From the NCBI GenBank assembly GCA_964354985.1, contig CAYHBR010000004.1:1-63293 (forward strand): DNA of 63,293 nucleotides, given 5' to 3'. A program made the translations under genes and the position numbers. This document shows, in pieces, positions 44,379 to 62,715 of the stretch (within the stretch, counting starts at the first letter, position 1; every line of letters starts with the position of its first letter). The DNA is from an uncultured Candidatus Saccharibacteria bacterium (lineage in GTDB: Bacteria > Patescibacteriota > Minisyncoccia > Phycocordibacterales > UBA9973). The notes below the pieces were generated by a model, which saw only the letters and a program-made list of their open reading frames with translations, did no database searches and had not been told where the DNA came from.

Positions 44379-44422
44379 GTTGAGATATTGTACTCTTTTT
44401 ATTTTTGAAGACAAATATCTAA

Positions 44423-44455
44423 GCAAAACAAAACCCGCATGAAGCGGGTTTTTGC
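44423..44455 (-). terminator. intrinsic terminator
   Basis: gcaaaacaaaacccgc-atgaa-gcgggtttttgc. It is nearly identical to the hairpin at 46256-46289. Confidence 0.8.
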
Positions 44456-45005: not shown

Positions 45006-45172
45006 GATATGTATCGTCAAGAGAAGTTATGCACAGGGCGATTATTACTAAATATAAGTATTGGAGAAACGAGTTAATAAATTTTATAATTATTAATACT
45101 GAATAGAGCAAAATTTTCGCATTGTCTTTTATTAAAAAACCAAGTAACATTGCCAATATAGACAGAAGAAAT

Positions 45173-46207
45173 ATGGATAAAAATAACTTGGGACAAAAAA
45201 ATACTACTGCCCAATTCCTCATATTCACTACCGAAACAGGAGAGCCGAAAATCGAGGTTCGTATTGAGGGCGAAATGGTATGGCTGAGCCAGAAGCTCAT
45301 GGCAGAGCTTTTTGATGTGGACATTCGCACTATTAGCGAACATCTACAAAATATCTTTAAAAGCCGGGAATTGATCGAAGATTCAGCTGTCCGGAATTTC
45401 CGGATAGTTCAAAATGAGGGGAAAAGAGAGGTTTCAAGGGAAATTGAGCACTACAACCTTGACGCAGTTATTGCTGTGGGTTATAGGGTAAACTCCAAGA
45501 GAGCCACACATTTCCGTATTTGGGCAACCCATGTCCTACGTGATTTTATAATAAAAGGGTTTGCACTTGATGATGAACGCCTCAAGCAAGGTAAAAAATT
45601 ATTTAATGTTGATTACTTCCGAGAGTTGCTCGAACGAGTTCGATCAATCCGCTCGAGCGAACGCCGTATCTATCAGCAGATTACCGACATCTTTGCCGAA
45701 TGCAGTATTGACTACGACCCTGATTCTCGTATCACGCATGACTTTTACGCGATGGTTCAAAATAAATTTCACTTCGCTATCACAGGCAAAACTGCGCCTG
45801 AAATAATCCATAGCAAGGCAGATGCAACATTGCCGAATATAGGTCTCTCGACATGGAAGAAATCCCCTACTGGCAGAATACTCCAATCCGACGTCACTAT
45901 CGCCAAGAACTATTTGGAAGAAAAAGACATCAAACAACTCGAAAGGACGGTTACGGGATTTTTCGACTATATTGAAGGCCTTATAGAACGAAGCAATACA
46001 TTTACTATGAAAGAATTTGCCGCGAGCGTTGATAAATTCCTGACTTTTAATGAATACGAGGTTCTTAATGGGAAAGGCCTGATATCGAAAGCTGACGCTG
46101 ATGAAAAGGCGATTTCAGAATACAGAGAATTCAATAAGCACCAGAAGATCGAATCGGACTTCGACAAAGAAGTTAAGAAACTTATTGACGAGAATAAGCC
46201 TGAATAA
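45173..46207 (+). CDS. RhuM-family protein
   Basis: VWLSQKLMAELFDVDIRTISEHLQNIFKSREL...HYNLDAVIAVGYRVNSKRATHFRIWATHVLRDFIIKGF...YFRELLERVRSIRSSERRIYQQITDIF. ATG at 45173 is preferred to the TTG at 45122. Confidence 0.8.
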   Translation: MDKNNLGQKNTTAQFLIFTTETGEPKIEVRIEGEMVWLSQKLMAELFDVDIRTISEHLQNIFKSRELIEDSAVRNFRIVQNEGKREVSREIEHYNLDAVIAVGYRVNSKRATHFRIWATHVLRDFIIKGFALDDERLKQGKKLFNVDYFRELLERVRSIRSSERRIYQQITDIFAECSIDYDPDSRITHDFYAMVQNKFHFAITGKTAPEIIHSKADATLPNIGLSTWKKSPTGRILQSDVTIAKNYLEEKDIKQLERTVTGFFDYIEGLIERSNTFTMKEFAASVDKFLTFNEYEVLNGKGLISKADADEKAISEYREFNKHQKIESDFDKEVKKLIDENKPE

Positions 46208-49760: not shown

Positions 49761-50243
49761 ATGATAAACAAAGACCTATTAGACTATGTCCGCTCAGAAA
49801 AAGAACGTGGCATCCCAAAAGATACTATAAAGAAAATGCTTCTTGAAAGTGGTTGGCAGGAAAAAGATATTGTTGATGCAGAACAAATAGTTTATGCAAT
49901 AAATATTGCGCCTGCTCCAGTGAGGCCTATCGAAAAAATACAACCTGTTAATATCCAACCAACAAATATTCTTGGTGCAATAAAAACCTACGGACAAACA
50001 ACAAGCCAACCGAGCTTAAACCAATCTGGCTTAAATCAAACAAAATTAGATTTGCCCGACATAACCGAGCCTACGAACATCGTTCCCCAAAAAATCACCG
50101 GAGTGCAACCCATTCCAATACTGCAGGTACAACCACACAAGTCTTATGCAAAAATCGGACTAACTATTATCGTAGTTATGCTTGTTTTATTACTCGGAGT
50201 AGCTGCTTATGCATATTATAGTGGGTACTTTGCGCCTTTTTAA
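49761..50243 (+). CDS. hypothetical protein: short N-terminal helical module, linker, C-terminal TM
   Basis: LLDYVRSEKERGIPKDTIKKMLLESGWQEKDIVDA resembles the N-terminus of 56353..57897. C-terminal TM is IGLTIIVVMLVLLLGVAAYAYY. Confidence 0.5.
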   Translation: MINKDLLDYVRSEKERGIPKDTIKKMLLESGWQEKDIVDAEQIVYAINIAPAPVRPIEKIQPVNIQPTNILGAIKTYGQTTSQPSLNQSGLNQTKLDLPDITEPTNIVPQKITGVQPIPILQVQPHKSYAKIGLTIIVVMLVLLLGVAAYAYYSGYFAPF

Positions 50244-50336: not shown

Positions 50337-51005
50337 ATGAGAATATTAATAATAGAAGATGACAAAGAGATAAGAACAGCACTTGCTTCACATCTCGAAT
50401 CTGTGTGTTTTGCAGTTGATACCACCGGAGACGGAGCAGATGGATCTTTTTTAGCAAGGACAAATGACTACGACGTGGTAGTCCTTGACTACATACTTCC
50501 AAATAAAGATGGCCTGCGTATTTGTCACGAAATTCGTGAAAGTGGTAAGAATATGCCAATTATTTTAACTTCTGTAAGAAATGAAATATGCGACAAAGTT
50601 GAGTTATTAAACTCTGGCGCTGACGACTACGTCACAAAACCTTATTCCCTAGACGAAATACTGGCTCGTATTAATGCAATGATTCGGAGACCTAAAAAAG
50701 TCGATTCACCGCTTATGTATATTTCAAATATTACGATAGACGCAAATAAACAAAAAGTAACAAAAGGTAATAGAGAAATTTATCTTACCAGAAAAGAATA
50801 TTCACTACTTGAATATCTGGCTCGTAACGAAGGGCGAGTAGTCACGAGAGGAACTATTATGGAACATGTTTGGAATATGGAAAGTGACCCTTTTTCAAAC
50901 ACAATAGAGGCTCATGTTTTCAACTTGAGAAAAAAGATTAGGGGTGGTAAAAATGAACTTATTCGAACAATACCTGGTCGTGGATATATGCTAGAGACAA
51001 AATAG
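50337..51005 (+). CDS. OmpR/PhoB-family response regulator
   Basis: MRILIIEDD, VVVLDYILP (phosphoacceptor Asp), a conserved Lys in DDYVTKP, and a winged-helix output domain (TRKEYSLLEYLARNEGRVVTR...IRTIPGRGY). Confidence 0.93.
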   Translation: MRILIIEDDKEIRTALASHLESVCFAVDTTGDGADGSFLARTNDYDVVVLDYILPNKDGLRICHEIRESGKNMPIILTSVRNEICDKVELLNSGADDYVTKPYSLDEILARINAMIRRPKKVDSPLMYISNITIDANKQKVTKGNREIYLTRKEYSLLEYLARNEGRVVTRGTIMEHVWNMESDPFSNTIEAHVFNLRKKIRGGKNELIRTIPGRGYMLETK

Positions 51006-51063
51006 TTTGTAATATTTATAATAAAATAATTTTTATTTTATAAAAAATTTATGAGGACTTAAT

Positions 51064-51135
51064 ATGGCTTTGAGATACTTTTCTTGGAGCAGCCACCATG
51101 TTGGTCGAGGTAGTGCTTCGTTAAAAATAATTTAA
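51064..51135 (+). CDS. candidate small ORF 1 (23 aa)
   Basis: ATG preceded by GAGGA with a 6-nt spacer. Sequence MALRYFSWSSHHVGRGSASLKII*. It shares the 14-nt start context ttaatATGgcttt with sORF2. Confidence 0.35.
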   Translation: MALRYFSWSSHHVGRGSASLKII

Positions 51136-51142
51136 GATTAAT

Positions 51143-51250
51143 ATGGCTTTAATCATAGAGAAAATGCTCAACAGCAAGGAATCAAGATCCGAAAAAGAAG
51201 TTCGGAATCTTTCGGTAAATGCCGGAGAGTTTGAGCCCTGGTGGAGTTAG
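51143..51250 (+). CDS. candidate small ORF 2 (35 aa), possible signalling-peptide/RiPP precursor
   Basis: MALIIEKMLNSKESRSEKEVRNLSVNAGEFEPWWS*. It has a charged leader-like N-terminus and a Trp-Trp near the C-terminus. It ends 30 nt before the kinase ATG. Confidence 0.4.
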   Translation: MALIIEKMLNSKESRSEKEVRNLSVNAGEFEPWWS

Positions 51251-51279: not shown

Positions 51280-52842
51280 ATGAGCACTAGAAAACTGAGC
51301 ACAAAATTACTCGTCACAACCTGCCAAGGGTGGTACAGAAATTGTGCTCATTATTTCTATGTTGCACTTCTTAAACCAATATCAGAGAGCGAAGACAATA
51401 ACAGAGGAGAACGGATACTTACGCTCATTTTGCTTTTTATCTTTACCCTGACTGCAATACTAGGAACTGGACTCATTATTCAAAAGATTAGTCTAGGGAA
51501 CAACTACCATGGTGTACCAATTTTATTATTTACTATAATTCTCACATTCTACGCTATTCTAATTTTAATTTCGCGTAAAGGTTACTATCGCACTGCAGGA
51601 TACATATTTATATTAGTATTTTTTACGATAACCTTTTACGGCAGTATTCAGTGGGGAGCAAGTATGCCTATGGGTCTTCTCGCTTATGGATTAGTCGTTA
51701 CTATGGCAAGTATAATAATCAGCAGTCAATTTGGCTTTATTGTCGCAATTTTTTCTTGCTTTGCAATTTTAGGTGTCGGACTAAACGAATCTAGCGCAGG
51801 AGCGCTTCCTACATGGAAACTTGAGGCAATAGAGAAGAAAGATGTCTTTGGCTATATCGTAATGATTTTTCTCACTGCGCTTCTCTCCCGAATATCTAAC
51901 AAAGAAATGGAGAAGTCGCTTGTAAGAGCACGCATATCCGAGCAAGCGCTTAAAGAAGAGCGAGACAACCTCGAAATAATTGTCGAAGTGAGGACCAAGG
52001 CTTTGCGCGAATCCGAAAGAGAACGCCTGCGAGAACTTTATAGATTTGCAGAATTTGGCAAACTCTCTGGTGGTATTTTCCATGACCTACTCAGCCCACT
52101 TACAGCTGTATCACTTTCTGTTGCTAATCTGGACAGACAAAACAGACTACGCAAAGAAAATAAACTTAATATTGAAAATAAGTTAAATAGTGGAATGGAA
52201 CAAGACGACGGGAGTAGATTTAATAATGAAAATGAAATAACAACTGATGGGTCAGAAGTTACTGAGTCTATCAAAACTGCCGTCGCAGCAACCAAACGAA
52301 TGGAGCAATTTATGCTTACTATTCGAAAACAAATAAAATCAGATAATCAAAAATACCTATTCTCTTTCAACGAAGAAATAGAAGACGCTATCGAGCTCGT
52401 TCGTTTTCGTGCCCAAAAAGCAAATGTCTCTGTCCATTTTGAAGCAACAGAAAATATCCAGATTTTCGGGAATCCACTCAAGTGCAACCAAGTGATAACC
52501 AACCTCATCAATAATGCTATCGACGCTTATGGAACTAATGGAAATGGGGCAATTTTTATCGAACTCAAAAAACTTACGGAGAAAATAACTTGTAGCTTTT
52601 CAGACAATGCTCTCGGTATACCACCTGAAATTATGGCAAAGATATTCACTCCTTTTTTCACAACCAAGGAAAGCGGTATCGGCCTTGGTCTCTCAACAAG
52701 TAAGGACATCATTGAAGAAAATTTCGGCGGGATTATTTTATATGAAAGCATTCTTGGCAAAGGAACGACTTTTACAATTAGCTTACCTCTGCAAATACAT
52801 GAACCTAAAACTGAAAAACAGCATAACCAAATGTCTACTTGA
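51280..52842 (+). CDS. sensor histidine kinase with ~6 N-terminal transmembrane helices
   Basis: H-box FGKLSGGIFHDLLSPLTAV, N-box NLINNAIDAY and G-box GIGLGLS. The membrane-embedded sensor has no large external domain. ATG at 51280 is preferred over the GTG at 51241, which overlaps sORF2. Confidence 0.9.
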   Translation: MSTRKLSTKLLVTTCQGWYRNCAHYFYVALLKPISESEDNNRGERILTLILLFIFTLTAILGTGLIIQKISLGNNYHGVPILLFTIILTFYAILILISRKGYYRTAGYIFILVFFTITFYGSIQWGASMPMGLLAYGLVVTMASIIISSQFGFIVAIFSCFAILGVGLNESSAGALPTWKLEAIEKKDVFGYIVMIFLTALLSRISNKEMEKSLVRARISEQALKEERDNLEIIVEVRTKALRESERERLRELYRFAEFGKLSGGIFHDLLSPLTAVSLSVANLDRQNRLRKENKLNIENKLNSGMEQDDGSRFNNENEITTDGSEVTESIKTAVAATKRMEQFMLTIRKQIKSDNQKYLFSFNEEIEDAIELVRFRAQKANVSVHFEATENIQIFGNPLKCNQVITNLINNAIDAYGTNGNGAIFIELKKLTEKITCSFSDNALGIPPEIMAKIFTPFFTTKESGIGLGLSTSKDIIEENFGGIILYESILGKGTTFTISLPLQIHEPKTEKQHNQMST

Positions 52843-54865
52843 TGGATGGAAGTTTATTCAATCAAAACAACAACCCAACGGTAAATGGTGCGGAATATCT
52901 TTCACTAGCGATGGAAAATGGGTTGCTTCAAAAACAGCATTCACTACTTCTCTCATTCTCACCTCACTACGGCCACTTTTTGAATATCCAGTAATAGATC
53001 GAAAATCTTTAAAGCAAGTTGTGGAAAATGCTGTCGAGTACCTCATTACTGAAAGTGAGGAAAAGTATACGACTTGGAACTACTGGGAAAGAACAGAGCC
53101 AAGACGCGATAAGATTCCGGCTGACATGGATGACACATCTCTTGCATTAGCAGCTATTAAAATATGGAGTCCAAAAAAAATTGGTGGAAAGGAACTTGCT
53201 AATGTTGTGCATTCATTATTTTCCACAGAAACAACAGAAGGTGGTCCGTACAATACCTGGATTACTGATTTTAAAAATGACATGCGTTTTAATGATTGCG
53301 ATATTGCAGTTAATGCCAATATTGCTTTTATGCTTTCACTCATCGGGATAAATGTACCGAACTTAACAAAGTTATTTGAACAACAAGTAAACGATGGGTC
53401 ATTTAAATTGAAAAATATTTCCAAATACTATAAGTCACCTATTGTTACCCTTTATTTTATCGCTCGAGCATATCAAGGAGATAAGCACCAAATTTTTATA
53501 GATGAAATTTTAAAACTACGAATTACTACTGGTGACTGGGGAACGCCAATGCATACAGCTCTAGCTCTTTCGGCTCTGCACTATTTAGGCCAAGACATTA
53601 CAATCGAAACAAAAGCACTGGGTTATATAGTCGTTTCTGCACAAGGAGGTTATTTTAAAAAAGAGGCCTTCTATTTTGAAGGCGGTGACAAAATAAATAT
53701 GTGGTACCACGGCAGTGATACACTCACGACAAGTTTTTGTATTGAAGCACTGTGCTGCGCTACTGTATCCAAAACAATAAAAACAAAAGATGGTTCTGAA
53801 AAAATTTCTGATAAAATAATTAGCAACCAGGAAGTGTGCAAATTTGAGAACGAGAGCAAAACTGTTGCTCGAAATTTTCTCGGCCGATCGAAATCACTAT
53901 CTAAATATTTCGAAAAAAGTGCTAAAGTATATCTAGCAAAGGTTTATTCTCATCATTGGGTCAAAGAGAGTATTCTTATGCCATTTTTCTTTGCAGACGC
54001 TTTTACCGAAATCGGGAACCGACGTAACAAAAAACAATTTGGCTTAAACGAAGCGAGTTTACACAAACTTTCATATGCCAATTTGTGTGGATGGATAGGA
54101 TATTCAGTGCTTGATGAAATAATAGACGGCGAATCACCTGTTTCTCTTATCCCATTCGCCAATTTCTGCTTAAGAGAAATGAATACATTGTATGGGGAAA
54201 TCTTTTCTGAACAAAGCCATAAAATAATTGTGAGTATACTAGAAGAAACAGACATCGCGTACGCGGGTGAAAACACCCGCCGAATGACAAAGAAGGGTGA
54301 CTCTTTTTTACTTGAGACTTTTTTAAAAGAAGCAGTTTTGCGGAAGTCGGTTTTAGGAAAGTCGGTTGAATATACTTACGACATAAACAGTTCTAGTAAA
54401 TCGATAGGTCAATGCATAGCTGGACTTGGTGTTCTTGAGTTACTCAGTGATACTGATTTTAAAATACCCCAAATACAGCAAGCGTTCATTTTGTTTTACA
54501 GAAATTACCTTGAGGCTAAACAGGACAGCGACGACGCCGAGGACCTACTCGAAGACCTTGGGCGTGGACATATTAGTAAAGTCGGAGCTCTTACTCTTAC
54601 TGCTTTTGTAAAAAAATATCCAAGTAAAAAATTACTAAGCATAGAACAAGACAAAGATACCTTACTTGATATTTTTTGGAATGATGTTTTTCCAAATTTA
54701 TATGAAGAAATATCAATATCACTTAGGTGCTCCGAGCAAGATATTTTGAAAATTCCCCTTAATAATACCGATTATTTTCTTTCTCTTATTCGAATCGCCC
54801 AAAGTAATATCGACAAAACAAAGAGCGAGAGGAAACTGGTTCAAGATTTTCTTAAAGCTTACTGA
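52799..54865 (+). CDS. fusion protein: N-terminal terpene-cyclase/prenyltransferase-type alpha/alpha toroid (DxDDT motif) plus C-terminal polyprenyl-synthase/ComQ-like alpha-helical domain
   Basis: N-terminal half: QW-like repeats QQPNGKW, QVNDGSF and TTGDWG, and IPADMDDTSLALAAI (the class II cyclase DxDDTA-type motif). C-terminal half: YSVLDEIIDGE, then about 140 aa later YLEAKQDSDDAEDLLED, which fits the FQxxDDxxD spacing of trans-prenyl synthases. The start at ATG 52799 overlaps the kinase by 44 nt. Confidence 0.55.
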   Translation: MNLKLKNSITKCLLDGWKFIQSKQQPNGKWCGISFTSDGKWVASKTAFTTSLILTSLRPLFEYPVIDRKSLKQVVENAVEYLITESEEKYTTWNYWERTEPRRDKIPADMDDTSLALAAIKIWSPKKIGGKELANVVHSLFSTETTEGGPYNTWITDFKNDMRFNDCDIAVNANIAFMLSLIGINVPNLTKLFEQQVNDGSFKLKNISKYYKSPIVTLYFIARAYQGDKHQIFIDEILKLRITTGDWGTPMHTALALSALHYLGQDITIETKALGYIVVSAQGGYFKKEAFYFEGGDKINMWYHGSDTLTTSFCIEALCCATVSKTIKTKDGSEKISDKIISNQEVCKFENESKTVARNFLGRSKSLSKYFEKSAKVYLAKVYSHHWVKESILMPFFFADAFTEIGNRRNKKQFGLNEASLHKLSYANLCGWIGYSVLDEIIDGESPVSLIPFANFCLREMNTLYGEIFSEQSHKIIVSILEETDIAYAGENTRRMTKKGDSFLLETFLKEAVLRKSVLGKSVEYTYDINSSSKSIGQCIAGLGVLELLSDTDFKIPQIQQAFILFYRNYLEAKQDSDDAEDLLEDLGRGHISKVGALTLTAFVKKYPSKKLLSIEQDKDTLLDIFWNDVFPNLYEEISISLRCSEQDILKIPLNNTDYFLSLIRIAQSNIDKTKSERKLVQDFLKAY

Positions 54866-55934
54866 GATTTAATTTAAAATGTGCAACTAATTTTAGCCAA
54901 ATTTCTTTGTGTTTACTGGACATCTCTATTTTTTCAAGAATCACTTCTGCTTTTTTAAGATGCTCAGCAATTGCCATACGCTCACTTAGTAGTGAACCTG
55001 ACAAAGTGAATAATTCTCTCACTCGGCATATATCGTTAGTATCGAGTGGTTGACCTCGGTAAACCGAGTATACTGCCTTTTGTCCTGCTGTAGAATGATT
55101 ATCAAAATGCAAAGACAAATGCGTTGGTAAATCGGCTGTGATATCTGACCCAAGCGACTTTCCCAACACAGCTTCGCTCGCCATTAGGTCAGACAAATCA
55201 TCTAGTCTTTGAAAAGCATGGCCGAGATGGTGTCCGAGTTTTTGATAATACTCAGTCTTTGTTTCAAAAGAAACTAGCTCTGGCTGATTTTTAACTCGAG
55301 AAACAGACTTATCTTTGGATTGATATACTGGGTGCCCTTCAACAGCCAAAGCAAGTCCAAGTAACGCCGGGTATACAAAAGTGTAACGCGCAGTTTTGAG
55401 CTCAATAGATGTGCTGAGAATACTTTCAGTAATATCTCTCCGTTTAACGAGTGAGGTGTCTATCATTTGTCCAATATTGGTCTCTTCGGCTAGTTTCAAA
55501 AAGATTGTCCGGGGAACTTTGTTGGAAATGTAATCAGGAGAATCAGTGCCGTTAATACTTTGTATTGCCCAAATTAGACATTGATTGCCAGCAAGCAAAG
55601 CCTGGTTGAGACCAAAGCGCGCACTTAGTGTTTCTACGCCATGTCGTTTATTTGAATTATCTAAAATGTCATCGTGAATAAGAGCAAATAATTGGAAAAG
55701 TTCAAGAGCAAAAAGTACTGGTAATATTGACTGCTTATCTGTACTTACTTCGCTTTTATAAGCCAAATTGCATATATAAGGACGTAAGCGCTTGCCGTCT
55801 CGAGCAAGCATAATAAGTTGTTCTCCGACAATTGAAAAATCCGGATAATGCACAACAACACTATCTACGCATTTTTTTAAATAAACCAAAAACAGTGGGT
55901 CAAAATACTTTTTAAATATAATTAATTGTTCCAT
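54852..55934 (-). CDS. polyprenyl diphosphate synthase (trans-IPPS family)
   Basis: FARM is LIHDDILDNSNKRHG and SARM is GHAFQRLDDLSDL. There is a 14-nt tail-to-tail overlap with the fusion gene. ATG (MEQLI) at 55934. Confidence 0.85.
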   Translation of the reverse strand: MEQLIIFKKYFDPLFLVYLKKCVDSVVVHYPDFSIVGEQLIMLARDGKRLRPYICNLAYKSEVSTDKQSILPVLFALELFQLFALIHDDILDNSNKRHGVETLSARFGLNQALLAGNQCLIWAIQSINGTDSPDYISNKVPRTIFLKLAEETNIGQMIDTSLVKRRDITESILSTSIELKTARYTFVYPALLGLALAVEGHPVYQSKDKSVSRVKNQPELVSFETKTEYYQKLGHHLGHAFQRLDDLSDLMASEAVLGKSLGSDITADLPTHLSLHFDNHSTAGQKAVYSVYRGQPLDTNDICRVRELFTLSGSLLSERMAIAEHLKKAEVILEKIEMSSKHKEIWLKLVAHFKLNLSKL

Positions 55935-56061
55935 TCCAACACTGTACAAGGCTGAGATGAAGTAAAAATCAATTATTTATCAAGTAAAAACGAGAGGAAT
56001 TACTACTCAATATTAAACTTTATTTTGCCAATTCTTGTAGAGCCGACTTTTTATTTAAGAA

Positions 56062-56352: not shown

Positions 56353-57897
56353 TTAATTGCATTTATCACCAAGTGGCTGCTTGTTTGCTTTACCTGAAAA
56401 ACCACGGCTATCAGTACAATAATACCCAGTCGTATTGTGGGTATACAAGCTCCATGCGGTCGCCGTATCAAAACAAATAGGATTATCGAAACCTGAAGCT
56501 AATATTTTAGCTGAAATAAACGGAATAGTAAGCTCTGTCCCCGTCTCTCCTTCTACTCCAGATTTCTGACAAACCCCTTTAAATGAATTATTATTTGTTC
56601 CTTTAAAAACTCCAGCTACAGTCCTAATATCCGAGAAAAAACTTTTTAAAACTTCTGGTAAATCTGTTGCTGCATTTTTATTTTCAAGCTCAGAGTATGA
56701 GACAACAAGTGGTGGAATATTTATAGTTGGAGACAAGTCAAAATGATCATAAGAAATAGTGAACCTTACTCTTACTGGCAAAGAATATTCTTTTGTCTTA
56801 TAAGCAAAACTAATAACTGCTTTTTTTATTAAATCGTTTTGGTCGAAAGTAATTTCCCCTGTTGGTAATTCGGTAATGGCTGTAAATGTAAATTTTGAAC
56901 CGATATTTGCCGACATCTCCAATCTATCACTCATTAAAAAAATATTACTGAAATAAGTCGCAATCGAGTCGGCATACCTAACTGTAACGATAGTTTCTCC
57001 CGTTGGAAGATTTGTTGAGTTTCCAGGTATTGCATCACTAAGAAACGAAGCCAATTCACGGGCAAAGCCTTTGTCATACAAACTTGTTTTTCCAAAAAAA
57101 CCATATGCAAAGGTTGGTATGTTCATCTCGCCATCATAACGGATCCAATTTGCACCTTGGTTTGAAATAGTATTATCGAAAACAGTTGAACTCTCTGAAA
57201 GCTTTGCGTAAAAAGCATTACTGATAAGTCGACTTGTCGCACTAAAATCCATACTTTTATTACCTTGAACACTTATTTTATTCGTAAATTTAACCTCATT
57301 TTTTTTTGCCCGTGAATCAAACCAGTCGTCCACTCCTAAAAATGTGCCTTTTATTGTGGCTGGAACTTGTCTTGAGTCTATCCCGCCAAAAGTACTTACT
57401 AAAACTTTATCAGTTAAAACCATACCGGCCGGGGCAGTTATTTCATAGTCACCTGAATATTGAATTGATTTTAAATTTTCTACTACACCTACAATTCTAG
57501 AAATTTTTTTATTCGGACTATTTAAAAGTGGGCCAAGTAAGAAATATCCCCCTACTCCAAAGACAACAAGCCCAAAGACTATTAAAATAGGAATCAGTCG
57601 GTGATGCTCTGGTTTAATTTCTTTACTAAAAACTTCGGGAGTTTTTACTTCTACCACAGTCGGTTCAATTTTGAGATCAATATTTGTTGCTTCTTTTGGC
57701 AGACCGACAGCTATCGGCATTTCTATCATCGGGCTACCGGCTTTGTCTGGACTTGCTCTCTCGGCAATCATACGGAATGCTTCGGCTATTTCCATTCTCT
57801 GCCAACCAGCAGTAACGAGCGCTTCCATTATCACTCCGTGGGCTGTTCCCTTGTTGACTTCGTTTTCTATATAAGTAAGTAGTTCGTTTGTAATCAT
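56353..57897 (-). CDS. membrane-anchored extracytoplasmic hypothetical protein
   Basis: 514 aa. The N-terminal module LLTYIENEVNKGTAHGVIMEALVTAGWQRMEIAEA resembles that of 49761..50243. One TM helix (LIPILIVFGLVVFGVGGYFLL), then a large domain ending in a Cys-containing C-terminus. Confidence 0.55.
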   Translation of the reverse strand: MITNELLTYIENEVNKGTAHGVIMEALVTAGWQRMEIAEAFRMIAERASPDKAGSPMIEMPIAVGLPKEATNIDLKIEPTVVEVKTPEVFSKEIKPEHHRLIPILIVFGLVVFGVGGYFLLGPLLNSPNKKISRIVGVVENLKSIQYSGDYEITAPAGMVLTDKVLVSTFGGIDSRQVPATIKGTFLGVDDWFDSRAKKNEVKFTNKISVQGNKSMDFSATSRLISNAFYAKLSESSTVFDNTISNQGANWIRYDGEMNIPTFAYGFFGKTSLYDKGFARELASFLSDAIPGNSTNLPTGETIVTVRYADSIATYFSNIFLMSDRLEMSANIGSKFTFTAITELPTGEITFDQNDLIKKAVISFAYKTKEYSLPVRVRFTISYDHFDLSPTINIPPLVVSYSELENKNAATDLPEVLKSFFSDIRTVAGVFKGTNNNSFKGVCQKSGVEGETGTELTIPFISAKILASGFDNPICFDTATAWSLYTHNTTGYYCTDSRGFSGKANKQPLGDKCN

Positions 57898-57912: not shown

Positions 57913-58392
57913 TTATTGCTGAATTTTTGTTGTATCGTCTTTACTTGCTTCACTAAATTTTCGCATATCAGAAAAAACTTTCAAGACTGACTCGTTTTTA
58001 CTTTCCGTGTGAAGCCAAATATTACTTATACAAGAACTATTAAACTCAGAATAAACAGTCGCATCAATTTTTGGGCAGGCACCTCCGACTTCTATAGTAT
58101 CAGAAATACTATTTACTTCTCCGGTGTTATTCGGCGGTGTGATTTTAAAACCAAATATCTTTTTTGAATCGGCCGGATTTTTTATCTCCTCAAAGATCCA
58201 ATCTGATGGGTAAATAAAAGCTGTGTCGTTTAAAGTATAGGCATTCCAAATAATTTTTTCGGAAACTTCGGGCACTATTGTGTCTTTTTGCTCTACCCTC
58301 TCGTATGGCGCCGGATTATTTTTTGTAGAAAAAAAAGCCACGCCTCCAAGCACTATTAAAATGACGAGTATCGAAAGAACTTTTTTTTGCAT
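57913..58392 (-). CDS. membrane-anchored hypothetical protein
   Basis: ATG (MQKKVLSILVILIVLGGVAFF) at 58392. Confidence 0.5.
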   Translation of the reverse strand: MQKKVLSILVILIVLGGVAFFSTKNNPAPYERVEQKDTIVPEVSEKIIWNAYTLNDTAFIYPSDWIFEEIKNPADSKKIFGFKITPPNNTGEVNSISDTIEVGGACPKIDATVYSEFNSSCISNIWLHTESKNESVLKVFSDMRKFSEASKDDTTKIQQ

Positions 58393-58461
58393 GAGTCTAT
58401 TATAACCGCAATATGTAAATGATAAAAATAAAAACACGGGATTAATCGTGTTTTTATTTTG

Positions 58462-58844: not shown

Positions 58845-59987
58845 TTAGTTAAATTTGAAAGTTTTTAGTAATTGCTCAAACTTAGCGATTTCTGCGACAT
58901 CACCATTGCCGAGGGGTGTGCTAAATTTAAAATAAAGTGAATGTGTCTGATCCTTATGCATGAAGAAAACATACATATCATGAGAAGGAATAACTGTGTG
59001 TCCCGCATGTTCGCCTCCACTGACAGTGGCAGTATTTCTCATTTCTCCCACAATCGCTGTCTGTCCTCCAACCGTTATTGTTTTTTTAGTCTGCGCAAAA
59101 ATATCTGAGGAATTATTATACCTTGAGAGTTCATCGCTGTAGACAGCACTTCCCATCGTGTAACATTCAATATGCATACTATCTTTTGGCGCATAAATCT
59201 GGTTATTGCTTCCATCGTGCGTCTCGATTCCTTGTGAAGCAGTGTCGATAAAATCAATCATTCTGCTCATGATAGTGCCTTGTAGGTTAATGGCATTTGA
59301 CTCATTGCCAGCTGACCAAGAATCTGGATATTGGAAAGTATATCCACATCCTGTATTGGTATATGTTTTCCAATTGGCAGTAGAAATTTGGGGAGCATTG
59401 ATCGTAAATTTATTATCAGAAATATCGCTTGGAATATTTGGACCCCCAACGGCAGGCCAAATAGCAACATAAAAATTATTTCCGTAATACACAGGATTAC
59501 CACTATCCCATTCACTTGCATCGTCCGTTGGAAGTGTTACAACAGCCGAACCATTATTTAATGCCGTTTTTGTTAGGACATGTTCCTCTCCGCCCATTCC
59601 GCCAGGACTTTTATATCGGACATCAATTTGTAAAAGTGTATTTGCAGACAAATTACAACTCTTCCATTTAACTGTAATTTTTTGACTAGCTGTATAAACT
59701 TCTCCACCATTCGGTGAAAGAACCGTTATTGAAGGATTACATGTTGGTGTAGGAGGAGGCGTTTGCTGTTGTGGCGGATTATTAGCAGGCGGAGGAGTTT
59801 GGGCAGGAGGATTATTATTTGTCGTCGGCGGAGTATAATTCTGTTCAGTTGTCGGAAAATAATTATCACTCACCGTATTTTTCGGAGTAGAACTTTTTCC
59901 CGCAAAGTAAGCAACTCCGCCGACCGCTAAAACTCCAAGAACTATTAGTAAAACTACGACTGGTGCAAAACCTTTATTGTATTTCAT
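58845..59987 (-). CDS. membrane-anchored secreted protein with a Pro-rich linker and an SPNGGE-type domain (paralogue of 46313..47296)
   Basis: MKYNKGFAPVVVLLIVLGVLAVGGVAYF anchor, PPTTNNNPPAQTPPPANNPPQQQTPPPTP linker, then ITVLSPNGGEVYTASQKITVKWKSCN. Confidence 0.65.
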   Translation of the reverse strand: MKYNKGFAPVVVLLIVLGVLAVGGVAYFAGKSSTPKNTVSDNYFPTTEQNYTPPTTNNNPPAQTPPPANNPPQQQTPPPTPTCNPSITVLSPNGGEVYTASQKITVKWKSCNLSANTLLQIDVRYKSPGGMGGEEHVLTKTALNNGSAVVTLPTDDASEWDSGNPVYYGNNFYVAIWPAVGGPNIPSDISDNKFTINAPQISTANWKTYTNTGCGYTFQYPDSWSAGNESNAINLQGTIMSRMIDFIDTASQGIETHDGSNNQIYAPKDSMHIECYTMGSAVYSDELSRYNNSSDIFAQTKKTITVGGQTAIVGEMRNTATVSGGEHAGHTVIPSHDMYVFFMHKDQTHSLYFKFSTPLGNGDVAEIAKFEQLLKTFKFN

Positions 59988-60271: not shown

Positions 60272-60325
60272 ACAAAGTGCCGTAAGGCTCCGAGAAACCC
60301 CGCCAAAAGCGGGGTTTCGAGTTTC
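60272..60325 (+). ncRNA. candidate ~50-nt small RNA convergent with the MazF-like gene
   Basis: It lies between the promoter above and the hairpin GAAACCCCGC-CAAAA-GCGGGGUUUC (60294-60318), which is followed by GAGUUUCU. It abuts the toxin stop codon (60325-60327). Confidence 0.3.
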
Positions 60326-60714
60326 TAGAGGAAAGATTTGAGTTTTTGTTTCATTTCATCAAAAAGTTCATTCGGAATATCGTAGAGCTTTCTTTTCAAT
60401 CGTTTAACACTAAGTAATTTCATTTGTGCCAAAATAGCGGAAACTTTTTGTTCGTTCGGGTCAGTGTAATTGAAATAAAAGTCAAATTCCTTTTGTTTTG
60501 TTGAAAGTGGAATAACCCAAAACATGTGATTGTTGAACTTTTTAACAATCAAGATAGGACGAGAAAAATTATCACCTGATCCGTTTTGTTCATAACCAAT
60601 ATTTTTTCCTAAACTGGACATCCACACTTCACCCTCTTTTGGAAAACGGTCAGGTTTATTTTTTTCGTCTTCAATTTTCTTTTTCAGTTCATTCCAAGAA
60701 TCAAAATCTTTCAT
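60325..60714 (-). CDS. PemK/MazF-family toxin (endoribonuclease fold), with no recognisable protein antitoxin gene
   Basis: KEGEVWMSSLGKNIGYEQNGSGDNFSRPILIVKK...VIPLSTKQK...SAILAQMKLLSVKRLKRKLYDIPNELFDEMKQKL aligns by eye with EndoA/MazF ([27 protein letters not shown]...SVILLEQIRTIDKQRL...DDEMMDKVDEAL). Confidence 0.78.
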   Translation of the reverse strand: MKDFDSWNELKKKIEDEKNKPDRFPKEGEVWMSSLGKNIGYEQNGSGDNFSRPILIVKKFNNHMFWVIPLSTKQKEFDFYFNYTDPNEQKVSAILAQMKLLSVKRLKRKLYDIPNELFDEMKQKLKSFL

Positions 60715-61040: not shown

Positions 61041-61163
61041 AGAGACGTTCGCGAAATTAGAAATGTGGAGCGGATTTTTGGGAAAAAAATCCGCACTGTG
61101 TGTCCCGACGCTAGCCTTGCTAGCGCGGACGAAATCCCAAAGTTCCCCCCAGCGTATGGAAAC
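61033..61163 (-). repeat. inverted repeat P, left copy (131 bp including the 8-mer; contains the recombinase 5' UTR and start codon)
   Basis: Checked base by base: it is the exact reverse complement of 62569-62699. Confidence 0.97.
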
Positions 61164-62715
61164 AATTCAAACCAAAACTAAATGTGTTCTCTATGCGAGA
61201 AAATCTACTGAAGAGGACGATAAGCAGGTGATGAGCATTGAAGCTCAATTGTTTGAGTTGCAAGAATATGCGCATAGAGAACGCATTGAAATTGTGAAAG
61301 TATTCACAGAAGCGAAAAGCGCAAAGAAGCCCGGGCGAGACGGTTTTGCGAAAATGATAAATTTTATTGAAACCTCAAAAGAACAGATTGGCATACTTTC
61401 TTGGCACCCCGACCGTCTCGCTCGGAATTCTGTTGATGGTGGAAAAATAATTTACTTGGTAGACATCAACAGAATTGCTTCTTTACGCTTTCCGCAGTTT
61501 TGGTTTGAGCCAACTCCGCAAGGCAAATTTATGTTGCAAGTGGCGTTCGGACAAAGTAAATATTTTTCTGACAACCTCGTGGAAAATGTGAAGCGTGGAA
61601 TCCGCCAAAAAATCCGCCGTGGGGAGTGGTTAACGCTCGCACCAATGGGATATGTGAATAACTACAAAACGAAGAATATCGAACCTCATGCTGTGTATTC
61701 CAAAGTTATCAAGCGAGCGTTCACTGCATATGCCACAGGAAAATATACCCTCATCGGACTGGCGGATTTTTTGGCGGATCACGGATTATGTCAGAAAAAA
61801 GGTACGCCACTTGCCAAATGTTCCGTCGTGAAAATGTTGACCAACAGAGCATATCTCGGATTTATCAAACATCGTGGTGAATGGCACGACGGAACATTTG
61901 AGCCGATTCTTTCCCCGACACTGTTTGAAGCAGTACAAAAAATTCTTTCGGCGAGGAGAAGACCATATCATTCTAAACTTCGTCATCCATTTCCATTTAC
62001 CCAGTTTATGACCTGTGGTGAGTGTGGCTGTGCGATTACCGCTCAATATGCCACCAACCGCTATGGTGTCATCTACACTTACTATCGTTGCACCAAAAAG
62101 AACGGAGTGTGCGCACAGCCATACATACAACAAAATCTTCTCGCCGAAAAACTCGAAACACTGCTTCAATCAGTGTCGCTTCCCCGTGAAGAAATTGAAA
62201 ATATGGAAAGGCAAATTTCTGCGTGGGAAAGTGAATCAATTTCTTCACGGGGAAGTGTTGCCCAAAATCTTAAAACTAAACTTTCCGAGACGAAGGAGAA
62301 GCTAGACAAACTGATATCACTGTATCTCGATGGCGACATTGAACGCGAAATATATTTGGAACGAAAAGACCTTCTCCTTCGTCAGAAAGCAAAGGCAGAG
62401 GAAAGTTTTAGAGATTTTGGACAACAGGGAAAGAATCGGCTCGAACCCTTGCGGAGTTTCGTTTTGTCCTTAAGAGAAGCCATGGAATTAGAAAAAACTT
62501 CCAATCATCTCGAATGGAAGAAGTTTTTCCAAAGTATCGGCTCTAACCCCTCTCTCAAGGACAAAACGGTTTCCATACGCTGGGGGGAACTTTGGGATTT
62601 CGTCCGCGCTAGCAAGGCTAGCGTCGGGACACACAGTGCGGATTTTTTTCCCAAAAATCCGCTCCACATTTCTAATTTCGCGAACGTCTCTCTTTGTGCC
62701 CAGGAGAGGACTTGA
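61156..62715 (+). CDS. large serine recombinase
   Basis: METIQTKTKCVLYARKSTEEDDKQVMSIEAQ contains the catalytic Ser in YARKST. Also present: a resolvase domain (GILSWHPDRLARN), a recombinase domain, a zinc ribbon CGECGCAITAQ...YYRCTKKNGVC and a coiled-coil tail. ATG at 61156 is preferred to the upstream start at 61063. The last ~44 codons lie in repeat P, and the stop (62713-62715) lies antisense inside tRNA-Leu. Confidence 0.9.
   Translation: METIQTKTKCVLYARKSTEEDDKQVMSIEAQLFELQEYAHRERIEIVKVFTEAKSAKKPGRDGFAKMINFIETSKEQIGILSWHPDRLARNSVDGGKIIYLVDINRIASLRFPQFWFEPTPQGKFMLQVAFGQSKYFSDNLVENVKRGIRQKIRRGEWLTLAPMGYVNNYKTKNIEPHAVYSKVIKRAFTAYATGKYTLIGLADFLADHGLCQKKGTPLAKCSVVKMLTNRAYLGFIKHRGEWHDGTFEPILSPTLFEAVQKILSARRRPYHSKLRHPFPFTQFMTCGECGCAITAQYATNRYGVIYTYYRCTKKNGVCAQPYIQQNLLAEKLETLLQSVSLPREEIENMERQISAWESESISSRGSVAQNLKTKLSETKEKLDKLISLYLDGDIEREIYLERKDLLLRQKAKAEESFRDFGQQGKNRLEPLRSFVLSLREAMELEKTSNHLEWKKFFQSIGSNPSLKDKTVSIRWGELWDFVRASKASVGTHSADFFPKNPLHISNFANVSLCAQERT
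62569..62699 (+). repeat. inverted repeat P, right copy
   Basis: Exact reverse complement of 61033-61163. It ends with ctttgtgc, whose last 3 nt are the 3' end of tRNA-Leu. Confidence 0.97.

Follow-up and report, generated by a model that had tools for sequence, protein, structure and literature searches.

The enzyme encoded at positions 52799-54865 (+ strand, 688 aa) of the window, by which the whole analysed stretch of 63,293 nucleotides is meant, would act as the maturase of a four-gene cassette, prenylating and cyclising the tryptophan of a ribosomal peptide to give a pheromone-like signal; a probability of about 60% is assigned to this reading. A terpene-decorated peptide signal is the most likely product of this cassette of the candidate phyla radiation (CPR, bacteria with tiny genomes), since the enzyme lies in a conserved arrangement together with a Trp-bearing peptide, a sensor kinase and a response regulator. 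The family, which extends across the CPR, its peptide and its kinase linkage appear to be undescribed. The observation flagged in the first-pass annotation, a fusion of a DxDDT-type toroid with a prenyl-synthase-like domain, was confirmed as a whole. In its interpretation, both domain assignments and, of the two roles suggested, the one involving a peptide were retained; the lack of precedent, the doubt attached to the small toroid and the polyprenyl synthase as a partner were given up.

The reading frame of the enzyme extends without interruption from 52607 to a stop at 54865. The ATG at 52799 was adopted as the right start because the Met1 column is invariant in an alignment of 26 homologs, and, when begun there, the gene shares 44 nt with the kinase gene upstream (stop 52842). 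No Pfam or NCBIfam model matched the 688-aa protein, neither domain being recognised by any model. A sequencing frameshift as the origin of the fusion was ruled out by the two-domain length, which is kept across homologs: all 29 homologs of the first search pass were 556-690 aa long (coverage 83-100%). The family profile collected 1,560 protein clusters at E<=1e-30; two-domain coverage and a length of 620-770 aa were found for 148 of the 150 best representative matches, the remaining two (573 and 592 aa) being N-terminally shorter. The named sources of family members were nearly all Patescibacteria/CPR. The AlphaFold2 model (mean pLDDT 88) consisted of two well-folded domains and a disordered linker (residues 326-346, 53774..53836, + strand, pLDDT <50), which was length-variable and gap-rich in the homolog alignment. 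Invariant among the 26 homologs were P107, D109, D111, D112, T113, G148-G149-P150-Y151 and T153-W154 in the N-terminal domain and D439, D443, Q575, D578, D579, D582 and D586 in the C-terminal domain; as judged from this alignment, the motif residues are not there by chance, being invariant despite an identity to the window protein of 24-46%.

The N-terminal domain (residues 1-325, 52799..53773, + strand) is a single-domain, beta-type alpha/alpha-barrel of the class II terpene cyclase superfamily. Two results place it there. With the family profile, the drimenol synthase AsDMS was matched in its cyclase (TC-beta) domain (E 7e-15), and there were further matches to AstC (E 9e-6) and squalene-hopene cyclase (SHC, E 1e-4). 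The top Foldseek matches were AsDMS (E 1.5e-10), the small SHC-like structures 8pak/8paj, MstE, SHC and SsDMS. The DxDDT-type motif is present as first described, within PADMDDT (residues 107-113, P107-A-D109-M-D111-D112-T113; 53117-53137, + strand), and takes the invariant form PxDxDDT in the family. D111 was aligned to D333 of AsDMS, the residue whose mutation (D333N) abolishes cyclisation. The QW-like motifs held in part: Q24...G28.F30 is near-invariant and GDW is moderately conserved, whereas QVNDGSF falls within a variable stretch. The small size of the toroid, previously taken as a ground for doubting cyclase activity, is no argument against a cyclase, because MstE and the TC-beta domain of AsDMS are active as single-domain class II cyclases.

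The C-terminal domain (residues 347-688, 53837..54865, + strand) is all-helical and trans-isoprenyl-diphosphate-synthase-like (trans-IDS-like) in its model (pLDDT 90, pTM 0.87). Its best 50 PDB fold matches were without exception to trans-prenyl synthases or to Ord1, a related Trp prenyltransferase (TM up to 0.65-0.70), in agreement with the fold first proposed. Both Asp-rich motifs were recovered, D439-E-I-I-D443 (in YSVLDEIIDGE; 54113-54127, + strand) and Q575-D-S-D578-D579-A-E-D582 (in AKQDSDDAED; 54521-54544, + strand), as was their spacing (139 residues from D439 to D578), and RQxxDD was placed by hhalign on the FQxxDD of canonical synthases. PF00348 gave no match in this domain even at E<=10, and no significant sequence similarity was found to ComQ/PF00348 or to any solved structure; the trans-IDS-like assignment rests on the modelled fold and the motifs. 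Neighbouring canonical synthases retain a GKxxR upstream of the first Asp-rich motif; it is absent here, since no Lys or Arg is conserved in the family upstream of this motif. With the fold taken from the model, the domain is read as a putative peptide tryptophan prenyltransferase. Trp is the target of every characterised trans-IDS-like peptide prenyltransferase (PMC13290415), its indole NH being recognised by a conserved Gln that lies upstream of the second Asp-rich motif (PMC13290415; PMC10853753); this Gln does not tell a Trp prenyltransferase from a prenyl synthase, because ordinary synthases conserve it too.

The cassette has the gene order regulator-peptide-kinase-enzyme, and its linkage was counted over 83 non-redundant loci. 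The first gene of the cassette (50337..51005, + strand) encodes an OmpR-type response regulator with a receiver domain and a winged-helix DNA-binding domain (Pfam Response_reg, E 1e-25; Trans_reg_C, E 5.5e-25), a homolog of which lies upstream on the same strand in 71/83 loci; the median distance from its start to the enzyme gene is 2295 nt. The histidine kinase gene (51280..52842, + strand; HATPase_c, E 4.5e-23) immediately precedes the enzyme gene in 81 of the 83 loci, its stop overlapping or abutting the enzyme start. Its ATG at 51280 fits the N-termini of homologs, the mechanical ORF beginning at a GTG at 51241. The window kinase consists of an N-terminal bundle of about 5-6 TM helices with very short loops, a HisKA-like H-box (FHDLLSPL) and the HATPase_c domain; among 79 kinase homologs, 4-6 TM helices (most often 5) were found over residues ~37-189, and the loops between them have a median length of ~11 aa. 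The sensor part is a compact TM bundle of the intramembrane type that lacks an extracellular domain. The components are still found together in two rearranged loci (L074 and L088). Neither a protease nor an exporter accompanies the cassette as a conserved gene in the 83 loci; tandem ABC exporters lie just downstream in about 13 of them.

The precursor-peptide gene (51143..51250, + strand), which is unannotated, was located with a peptide HMM and encodes 35 aa, MALIIEKMLNSKESRSEKEVRNLSVNAGEFEPWWS, comprising a conserved leader of the approximate form xxxIIEKxLxxKxxR and a C-terminal Pro-Trp. The same gene had been listed as sORF2 in the first-pass annotation. Across loci, the peptide genes encode about 37 aa, are unannotated and lie between regulator and kinase. 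Exactly one match of the peptide HMM (E<1e-3) was obtained in 76 of 91 loci, among 19,274 six-frame short ORFs, and 71 of the 74 matches in loci with a called enzyme gene were on the same strand and between regulator and kinase. A peptide gene was found in ~94% of the loci having enough upstream sequence; in three such loci (L010, L030 and L041) no peptide was detected by the HMM. This Trp-peptide gene in the same cassette favours prenylation and cyclisation of a peptide over the other role suggested for the enzyme, elongation and cyclisation of a prenyl chain. None of the 75 unique peptides departs from Leu9 or from the Trp; 74 of them have Arg15, and in 61 a Pro stands before the Trp. Between the invariant Trp and the C-terminus 0-7 residues are found, and hardly any Trp occurs at other positions (2 in 1,870 residues). 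The ORFs carry a coding signature (codon-position entropy 1.40/0.99/1.76), start with ATG in 69/75 cases and are preceded by Shine-Dalgarno-like motifs in 31% of cases, vs 8.3% of control ORFs. While the leader is conserved, the core is diversified over a wide span, from hydrophobic (e.g. ALSAFVLTVVGSTMAPW) to strongly acidic/hydrophilic (EFEPWWS in the window).

The stand-alone polyprenyl synthase noted next to the enzyme is real: a canonical short-chain trans-polyprenyl diphosphate synthase (PF00348, E 7e-37) is encoded at 54852..55949 on the - strand, and its gene and that of the enzyme converge, with an overlap of 14 nt. Among the NCBIfam models it is most similar to those of short-chain, GGPP and FPP synthases, and it carries the motifs GKRLRP, F-A-L-I-H-DDILD, KT, FQRLDDLSD and GK. 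It is likely to supply the prenyl donor. As a conserved partner of the enzyme it did not hold up: a homolog within 5 kb was found in only 17/83 loci, at varying position and on either strand, and 80% of loci have no adjacent synthase. The synthase is an accessory and not a core part of the cassette, the conserved partners being the peptide, the membrane histidine kinase and the response regulator.

In the mechanism proposed here, the C-terminal domain would bind an allylic prenyl diphosphate, probably C15-C20 and delivered by the neighbouring polyprenyl synthase where present, through its Mg2+-binding DDxxD-type motif, and would move the prenyl group onto the single invariant Trp near the C-terminus of the 35-aa precursor, with the Gln575/Asp578 pair positioning the indole. 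Asp111 in the DxDDT motif of the N-terminal cyclase would then serve as the acid that protonates the chain, by now bound to the peptide, at its distal double bond, and the cyclase would fold the chain into a polycyclic terpene; the reverse order, GGPP to a copalyl-type diphosphate first and transfer to Trp afterwards, would be chemically possible as well. The lipidated peptide may partition into the membrane, possibly after removal of the conserved leader. We infer its export and its action as the ligand of the co-transcribed 5-6-TM intramembrane kinase, which, having sensed it, would phosphorylate the OmpR-type regulator, so that peptide, enzyme, kinase and regulator together would form an autoinducing, pheromone-like circuit.

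With the chemistry as proposed, the product could instead be an antimicrobial or host-membrane-acting lipopeptide, the two-component system providing nisin-like autoinduction or immunity, or else a regulatory input of an unrelated kind. CPR bacteria are typically episymbionts and must interact with host membranes; many cores are hydrophobic, as in the example given above, and the tandem ABC exporters are consistent with such a product. Prenylation, moreover, raises the membrane activity of peptides (PMC13290415). However, the partners conserved universally are a sensor kinase and a regulator, with no gene for immunity or export conserved alongside them, and the range of cores from hydrophobic to acidic/hydrophilic resembles the pherotype-like diversification of ComX, which makes this explanation unlikely; a product that is both antimicrobial and signal is possible. 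A bifunctional small-molecule terpene synthase is distinctly unlikely. The C-terminal domain would then elongate or ionise a prenyl diphosphate for the N-terminal domain to cyclise, in the manner of bifunctional class II/class I diterpene synthases or of chimeras between a prenyltransferase and a cyclase. A free terpenoid would result as membrane lipid or signal, and the peptide would be unrelated to the enzyme, e.g. a kinase modulator. Intact catalytic motifs in both domains, the action of AsDMS, nearest relative of the cyclase domain, on free FPP, the polyprenyl synthase adjacent in the window and in the 17 loci, and a weak whole-length fold match to taxadiene synthase (rank 50) agree with such an enzyme. 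The C-terminal domain, on the other hand, resembles prenyl synthases and not class I cyclases, having neither the NSE/DTE-type second motif of the latter nor the GKxxR of canonical elongating synthases, and the target is Trp in all trans-IDS-like transferases of this kind that have been characterised; the near-terminal Pro-Trp peptide gene that accompanies the enzyme in nearly all loci with adequate upstream sequence, even after rearrangement, would be left unexplained.

Less probable still is a cis-acting metabolic or envelope sensor, in which modification of the peptide would require sufficient prenyl diphosphate pools, and the peptide, staying in the membrane of its producer, would inform the intramembrane kinase of isoprenoid or lipid-carrier status, with no cell-to-cell communication. 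The genomes of CPR bacteria are small and these organisms depend on scavenged lipids; together with the intramembrane type of the kinase, the translational or transcriptional coupling of enzyme, peptide and kinase, and the lack of a conserved exporter or leader protease, this is what such a sensor would lead one to expect. A diversified core behind a conserved leader is, however, typical of secreted pheromones and other ribosomal modified peptides, and to our knowledge ComX likewise has no dedicated exporter. That the enzyme is a non-catalytic kinase subunit, binding an isoprenoid lipid (e.g. undecaprenyl phosphate) or docking the peptide with neither domain turning over a substrate, is very improbable: its gene is tightly coupled to the kinase gene, and alpha/alpha-toroids also serve as binding modules (complement TED and prenyltransferase beta-subunits, both of which give weak Pfam matches), but the invariance of DxDDT and of both Asp-rich motifs down to ~24% identity is expected for catalysis and not for mere binding.

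The preferred reading, a bifunctional maturase of a Trp peptide, has a precedent in enzyme type, since ChrPC was reported in 2024 to combine Trp prenylation with cyclisation of the prenyl chain. The architecture had first been thought unknown in bacteria, whereas ChrPC and NctPC are fused prenyltransferase-cyclase peptide maturases (Hubrich et al., Chem 2024, via the review PMC13290415). As described there, the trans-IDS-like domain of ChrPC prenylates the Trp of a ribosomal peptide with C10-C20 donors, after which the prenyl group is cyclised by a fused single-domain class II cyclase that is MstE-like (PMC13290415). By this description, ChrPC and the CPR enzyme share one polypeptide, the same two folds and a Trp-bearing precursor. 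In the CPR family the cyclase is N-terminal and the transferase C-terminal. The family differs in belonging to the Patescibacteria/CPR, in lacking a Pfam/NCBIfam model, in its precursor (~37 aa with its own conserved leader, vs a proteusin, Nif11 or lasso type) and, relative to the same description, in its place within a two-component signalling cassette. The closest detectable relatives of the N-terminal domain, the HAD-TC-beta drimenol synthases AsDMS/AstC and MstE, likewise have a single beta-type domain with a DxD(D/T)T acid motif, and from MstE it is known that a domain of this sort can act as cyclase on a prenyl chain already carried by an aromatic acceptor; AsDMS/AstC, however, are fused to a HAD phosphatase and act on free FPP instead of a peptide, MstE is a stand-alone protein, and their identity to the window protein is only 14-19%.

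In the PalPXQ system of Paenibacillus alvei, the histidine kinase PalP, the precursor PalX, which ends in Trp, and PalQ, a prenyltransferase that is trans-IDS-like, are clustered in a similar way (PMC10853753). PalX, unlike the short CPR peptide, is a long precursor of the nitrile-hydratase-leader type, and PalQ needs a strictly C-terminal Trp, has no cyclase domain and showed no detectable sequence similarity to the CPR enzyme. ComQXPA, a quorum-sensing system of Bacillus, likewise unites four roles in a small operon: ComQ is a trans-IDS-like isoprenyl transferase, ComX the short precursor of a Trp-prenylated pheromone, ComP a multi-pass membrane kinase and ComA a response regulator. ComX resembles the CPR peptide in its conserved N-terminal part and variable C-terminal part with a modified Trp. 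The CPR enzyme has no PF00348/ComQ sequence match, keeps the full second Asp-rich motif that ComQ lacks (PMC10853753) and carries an additional class II cyclase domain; its kinase, in contrast to ComP, has a HisKA-like H-box and 5-6 TM helices, its regulator is of the OmpR and not the NarL type, and the genes stand in the order regulator-peptide-kinase-enzyme instead of Q-X-P-A. The cassette is best read as ComQXPA/PalPXQ-like, with the likeness one of analogy and not of homology.

The reading frame of the enzyme (window 52799–54865, plus strand) is open from 52607 to the stop codon at 54865. Translation from the ATG at 52799 yields a protein of 688 aa, and this ATG was taken as the correct start because Met1 occupies an invariant column in the family alignment (A1, 26 homologs). 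The start of the gene overlaps the end of the preceding kinase gene (stop at 52842) by 44 nt. A fusion of a class II terpene cyclase-like domain with a prenyl-synthase-like domain had been proposed in the first-pass annotation, and the motifs quoted there were all found in the translation: PADMDDT at residues 107–113, YSVLDEIIDGE (D439...D443), and AKQDSDDAED (Q575...D582). When the whole enzyme or either half (N-domain, residues 1–325; C-domain, residues 347–688) was compared with Pfam and NCBIfam, no meaningful match was obtained even at E≤10, and a single-sequence search of the PDB sequences was empty. The proposal was therefore unsupported by sequence alone, and profile and structure methods were needed.

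A first homolog search gave 29 proteins (556–690 aa, 24–46% identity, 83–100% coverage), the named ones among which come from metagenome-assembled genomes of Parcubacteria/Paceibacteria and are called 'hypothetical'. The residues invariant in A1 include, in the cyclase half, P107, D109, D111, D112, T113, G148-G149-P150-Y151, T153-W154, D168, V171, N172, and N174, and, in the second half, G431, W432, Y435, D439, D443, A487, E491, S535, Q575, D578, D579, D582, and D586. Since the motif residues are invariant, the motifs define the family and are not chance resemblances. When 1.84 billion representative proteins were searched exhaustively with the family profile, 3,770 matches were obtained at E≤1e-3, of which 1,560 reached E≤1e-30; among the best 150, 148 are 620–770 aa long and span both domains, the remaining two (573 and 592 aa) being N-terminally shorter. 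A sequencing frameshift that had joined two separate genes, which was to have refuted the fusion, is excluded by the lengths and coverage of these full-length two-domain homologs, with invariant residues in both halves; the fusion is real.

Scanning of one genome per GTDB species revealed a relative of the enzyme in 216 species. The 80 loci that were fetched belong to Paceibacteria, Nomura-, Buchanan-, Doudna-, Moran-, and Colwellbacteria, Saccharibacteria/Saccharimonadales, and several Microgenomates lineages. Fourteen loci, in third-party-assembled genomes, carry the title 'uncultured Gammaproteobacteria bacterium' (L025, L027, L034, L036, L038, L042, L044, L046, L048, L051, L059, L067, L069, L076), and the titles Methylomirabilota (L024) and Dormiibacterota (L079) occur once each; the cassette is otherwise restricted to the Candidate Phyla Radiation (CPR), and records with non-CPR labels are suspected to be mislabelled or mis-binned. 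Such family members as bear a name are annotated 'hypothetical' or, once, 'prenyltransferase/squalene oxidase repeat-containing protein'. For two of them (P0019 and P0025) a precomputed annotation gives PF28380.1, an accession outside the Pfam copy scanned, and it did not appear when both proteins were rescanned against that copy; it may be a very recent entry for part of the family.

The AlphaFold2 model of the enzyme (mean pLDDT 88, pTM 0.79) contains a disordered linker at residues 326–346. The N-domain is modelled with the alpha/alpha-barrel beta-domain fold of class II cyclases, and its best fold matches in the PDB (Foldseek) were AsDMS (E 1.5e-10), 8pak/8paj, the single-domain cyclase MstE (E 1e-7), SHC, SsDMS, and oxidosqualene cyclase. 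Similarity to characterised class II cyclases was also detected at the sequence level: the family profile matched the class II cyclase (TC-beta) domain of AsDMS, a drimenol synthase from bacteria (9mhs, E 7e-15, profile positions 39–311), the fungal AstC (E 9e-6), and small 'SHC' proteins together with squalene-hopene cyclase (E about 1e-4), and SQHop_cyclase_C was matched weakly by 10 of the 26 family members. The DxDD-type acid motif lies at the conserved place as D109-x-D111-D112-T113, invariant in the 26 homologs. In the profile alignment, PxDxD(111)DT of the family is placed over PDDLD(333)TT of AsDMS, and the deposited D333N variant of AsDMS differs at precisely the D111 column. This exchange abolishes protonation-initiated cyclisation (PMC12365925). 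The alignment with D333 thus predicts that D111 acts as the general acid. The N-domain is accordingly assigned, by profile and modelled fold, to the class II terpene cyclases of the single beta-domain type, and cyclisation activity is predicted for it.

The C-domain was modelled separately from its own alignment (A2; pLDDT 90, pTM 0.87). Its predicted fold is the isoprenoid-synthase (alpha) fold of the trans-isoprenyl diphosphate synthase (trans-IDS) type, and the best 50 PDB fold matches were without exception trans-isoprenyl diphosphate synthases (hepta-, hexa-, octa-, and solanesyl-PP, GGPP, and FPP synthases, and the prenyltransferase domains of fungal chimeras) or Ord1, a tryptophan farnesyltransferase, with TM-scores of up to 0.65–0.70 across the whole domain. 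Both halves of the first-pass domain assignment were right in the light of these profile and fold matches; its doubt that a toroid of half the usual size could be a competent cyclase falls, single beta-domain class II cyclases being established active enzymes.

In the first Asp-rich motif (DDxxD) of the C-domain, D439 and D443 are invariant, and most members have Asp at the second position, where the window protein has Glu. The Gln upstream of the second Asp-rich region is likewise invariant (Q575-x-x-D578-D579), a feature that also occurs in canonical synthases and is thus non-discriminating. By sequence the C-domain does not belong to the ComQ/polyprenyl_synt family (PF00348/IPR033965): no match to PF00348 or NCBIfam was found at E≤10, and its profile, searched against PDB sequences, gave only insignificant matches to MoeN5 (E 0.06) and spliceosomal p14 (E 0.04); these were taken as noise, although the MoeN5 alignment does fall at the DDxxD region. 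The sequence relationship to the polyprenyl synthases of the same loci is very weak (hhalign, probability 38%, E 3.4e-4), but the alignment placed RQxxDD of the family exactly on the second Asp-rich motif, FQxxDD, of these canonical enzymes. A search of a 5.8-billion-protein set for differently built or non-CPR relatives of the C-domain yielded family members, or fragments located on short contigs, and nothing else; no named or characterised relative was among them. Only three columns of the C-domain are at least 80% Lys/Arg (R459, K534, and K574), none of them upstream of D439. The GKxxR motif that precedes the first Asp-rich motif in canonical elongating synthases is absent; the neighbouring canonical synthases keep GKxxR, H-DDxxD...R, KT, FQxxDD, and GK (G52-K53-R56, K185-T186). 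Accordingly, the C-domain would bind a prenyl diphosphate and act as an Mg2+-dependent transferase, its elongation (homoallylic substrate) site having been lost.

The gene order was read from the gene calls of seven distant homologs, all of which showed an OmpR-type response regulator, a histidine kinase, and the enzyme on one strand in this order, the kinase stop abutting or overlapping the enzyme start; a polyprenyl synthase was present in one of the seven loci. For a wider census, all ORFs of at least 100 aa from 83 non-redundant loci were clustered. Alongside the enzyme (83/83), the kinase was found in 81 loci (median start −1414) and the regulator in 71 (median start −2295, absences mostly at contig ends), followed by a polyprenyl synthase (17), ABC exporters (13), and a BrkB/YihY-like membrane protein (9); no other cluster exceeded 9 loci. 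The stress that the first-pass annotation had laid on the polyprenyl synthase beside the enzyme (54852–55949, minus strand, PF00348) was therefore misplaced, and the synthase was rejected as a conserved partner.

The regulator (50337–51005, plus strand, in the window) is of the OmpR type (Trans_reg_C). The kinase (51280–52842, plus strand) has 4–6 closely spaced transmembrane helices, most often five, within residues ~37–189, joined by loops of ~11 residues; it has no extracytoplasmic domain, and its H-box, FHDLLSPL, is HisKA-like. By these sequence features it is classed as an intramembrane-type sensor. An extra ORF of ~240 aa lies between the kinase and enzyme genes in L067 (4248–4970) and L030 (1635–2351), and in L009 a 512 aa gene with no recorded Pfam match is located between HIT and the regulator. 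In the Nomurabacteria-type loci (L050, L060, L068, L075, L082, L083, and L086), the enzyme is followed ~2–6 kb downstream by a BrkB/YihY-like membrane protein of ~315 aa and two tandem ABC exporters of ~570 aa each, of the fused TMD-NBD type. These proteins are candidates for export of the modified peptide, in only 9–13 of the 83 loci.

On either side of the window cassette lie genes of the kinds that usually accompany mobile elements or belong to toxin-antitoxin systems: a RhuM-family protein (45122–46207), a RhuM+Fic protein (43383–44426, minus), a PemK/MazF toxin (60325–60714, minus), and a large serine recombinase (61063–62715). Neither Pfam nor NCBIfam was matched by the ORFs at 56353–57897 (minus, 514 aa) and 49761–50243 (plus, 160 aa), and Pfam was not matched by those at 57913–58437 (minus, 174 aa) and 58845–59987 (minus, 380 aa). 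The best plus-strand sigma-70-like site, GAGACA-17-TATAAT (50994–51022, 10/12 matches), coincides with the stop codon of the regulator just upstream of the peptide gene. Its position would be appropriate for a promoter within the cassette that drives the peptide, kinase, and enzyme genes, but such sites are not enriched over shuffled sequence; the promoter and terminator scans of this AT-rich region performed no better than on shuffled sequence.

Six of the first eight loci were seen to have a short ORF of shared pattern lying between the regulator and kinase genes. From these six a peptide profile was built (one iteration) and used to search 19,274 six-frame ORFs (12–120 aa) from 91 loci. It gave exactly one match (E<1e-3) in each of 76 loci, that is, a co-encoded precursor gene of ~37 aa with an invariant Trp as putative acceptor. 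For 74 of these matches an enzyme gene was called in the locus; 71 of the 74 share its strand and are located 1,100–1,800 nt upstream of its start, between regulator and kinase. Of the 15 loci lacking a match, eight have too little upstream sequence and four have weaker matches in the right place; no peptide was found in the other three (L010, L030, and L041). The 75 unique peptides are 34–67 aa long (median 37), the longer ORF calls probably running too far N-terminally in some cases, and their consensus reads M-K-K-[LIV]-[ILV]-[KE]-K-[IVL]-L-T-D-K-x-A-R-[NS], then ~17 variable residues, P-W, and 0–7 further residues. Leu9 is present in all 75 and Arg15 in 74; the Trp is present in all 75 and directly preceded by Pro in 61, and Trp occurs elsewhere only twice in 1,870 residues. 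The ORF has the hallmarks of a coding gene: codon-position entropies of 1.40/0.99/1.76 are seen in this frame only, 69 of 75 ORFs start with ATG, and Shine-Dalgarno-like motifs precede 31% of them vs 8.3% of control ORFs.

The window precursor, MALIIEKMLNSKESRSEKEVRNLSVNAGEFEPWWS, is encoded at 51143–51250 (plus strand) and is evidently the short ORF that had earlier been termed sORF2. A second short ORF, MALRYFSWSSHHVGRGSASLKII (51064–51135, plus strand), ends 8 nt upstream of it, and the two ORFs have the 13-nt start context TTAATATGGCTTT in common. As it does not match the peptide profile, this ORF was not counted as a precursor; it may be a decayed duplicate or due to chance. In the Saccharimonadales loci L074 (494–4258) and L088 (3213–6905), the peptide gene is followed by the kinase gene on the minus strand with the enzyme gene divergent beside them, so that the components remain together despite rearrangement; the peptides of these loci end in ...AYWN or ...AYWS and not in Pro-Trp.

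The observed domain folds, motifs, peptide gene, and linkage are most economically explained by a sequence of prenylation, cyclisation, and sensing, and the full model is given a probability of roughly 0.6. The C-domain would prenylate the invariant Trp of the 37 aa precursor, the N-domain would then cyclise the Trp-attached chain with Asp111 as the acid, and the lipidated peptide would be the ligand of the cognate intramembrane kinase. In an alternative order, which is chemically possible, GGPP would be cyclised first to a copalyl-type diphosphate and transferred afterwards. The donor could come from the neighbouring canonical short-chain synthase where one is present; that of the window has Phe at position −5 before DDILD, from which its product is presumably C15–C20. 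Folds, motifs, peptide gene, and linkage are thus shown, and what we infer from them is the substrate, the length of the prenyl chain, the order of the reactions, removal of the leader, export, and the identity of the ligand. Taken separately, the function proposed for the enzyme is likely to be correct, and the chances that the kinase senses its product are about even. The first-pass interpretation was thus sound in its domains, and its suggestion that a peptide is prenylated and cyclised is the favoured one; it erred on precedent, cyclase competence, and the weight of the polyprenyl synthase.

The same chemistry could serve another role if the product acted as an antimicrobial or on host membranes, under nisin-like autoregulation. 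Such a role is compatible with the hydrophobic cores and the occasional ABC exporters, but the universally conserved sensor and regulator fit signalling better, as does the lack of conserved immunity or export genes; we regard this role as unlikely. Less probable still is a bifunctional synthase of free terpenoids to which the peptide is unrelated, as this would leave the near-obligate peptide linkage and the invariant Pro-Trp unexplained, and both the missing elongation motif and the lack of the second motif of class I cyclases count against it. A cis-acting sensor of prenyl-diphosphate status is given slightly less credence again. That the enzyme is a non-catalytic accessory protein is very improbable, its catalytic motifs being invariant down to about 24% identity.

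Beyond the preferred model of a prenylated, cyclised, and sensed peptide, we suggest tentatively, at somewhat worse than even odds, that the cassette is a native, radiation-wide cell-to-cell pheromone system, in which a peptide bearing a polycyclic terpene on Trp is released and sensed by the kinase and the variable core defines 'pherotypes'. If true, the ultra-small, largely uncultured CPR bacteria would for the first time have a quorum-sensing-type system assigned to them, one that would use a terpene-cyclised peptide as signal, a chemistry that we know of for no pheromone. CPR bacteria (Patescibacteria), whose genomes measure about 1 Mb, are considered minimal in both metabolism and regulation; to our knowledge, almost nothing is known of how they sense one another or their hosts. 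The cassette, which extends from Paceibacteria to Saccharibacteria and Microgenomates, is a concrete, testable candidate for peptide signalling in this group, and it is invisible to Pfam, NCBIfam, and gene callers because the peptide gene is almost never annotated. For enzymology, it offers at least 1,560 50%-identity clusters of proposed maturases whose substrate would be very short and simple, which recommends them for the production of terpene-decorated peptides, and a natural pairing of such a modification with a receptor kinase.

Among known systems, ComQXPA is the classic Trp-prenylated pheromone with its own kinase and regulator. The cassette works alike, yet its regulator is of the OmpR type and not of the ComA (NarL/LuxR) type, and its kinase, with a HisKA-like H-box and 4–6 transmembrane helices, is not of the ComP type. 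According to a 2026 review (PMC13290415), ComQ, PalQ, and the P domain of ChrPC make up the trans-IDS-like peptide prenyltransferases. Tryptophan is the target of every characterised one, and the indole NH is thought to be recognised by a Gln that closely precedes the second Asp-rich motif, in concert with the first Asp of that motif. In ChrPC and NctPC (Hubrich et al., Chem 2024), a prenyltransferase is fused to an MstE-like cyclase, and Trp is prenylated first (C10–C20) and the prenyl group cyclised after (as reviewed in PMC13290415). The suggestion in the first-pass annotation that this architecture lacks a bacterial precedent is out of date in view of ChrPC (PMC13290415), the enzyme type of which is, by description, that of the window family. 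In the PalQ cluster, too, a histidine kinase is encoded, alongside a precursor whose terminal Trp is conserved (PMC10853753). A literature search on CPR/Patescibacteria with ComX, ComQXPA, terpene cyclases, or RiPPs found nothing specific. Since the family lies outside ComQ/PF00348 and the kinase and regulator are of other classes, the cassette is not a member of the ComQXPA or PalPXQ families, and presumably not of the ChrPC family. What appears to be new is the family itself: its cyclase-prenyltransferase maturases are numerous, deeply diverged, and spread across the CPR, and they come with a minimal precursor of their own and a two-component system dedicated to them, a combination that resembles in function ComQXPA or PalPXQ joined with ChrPC.
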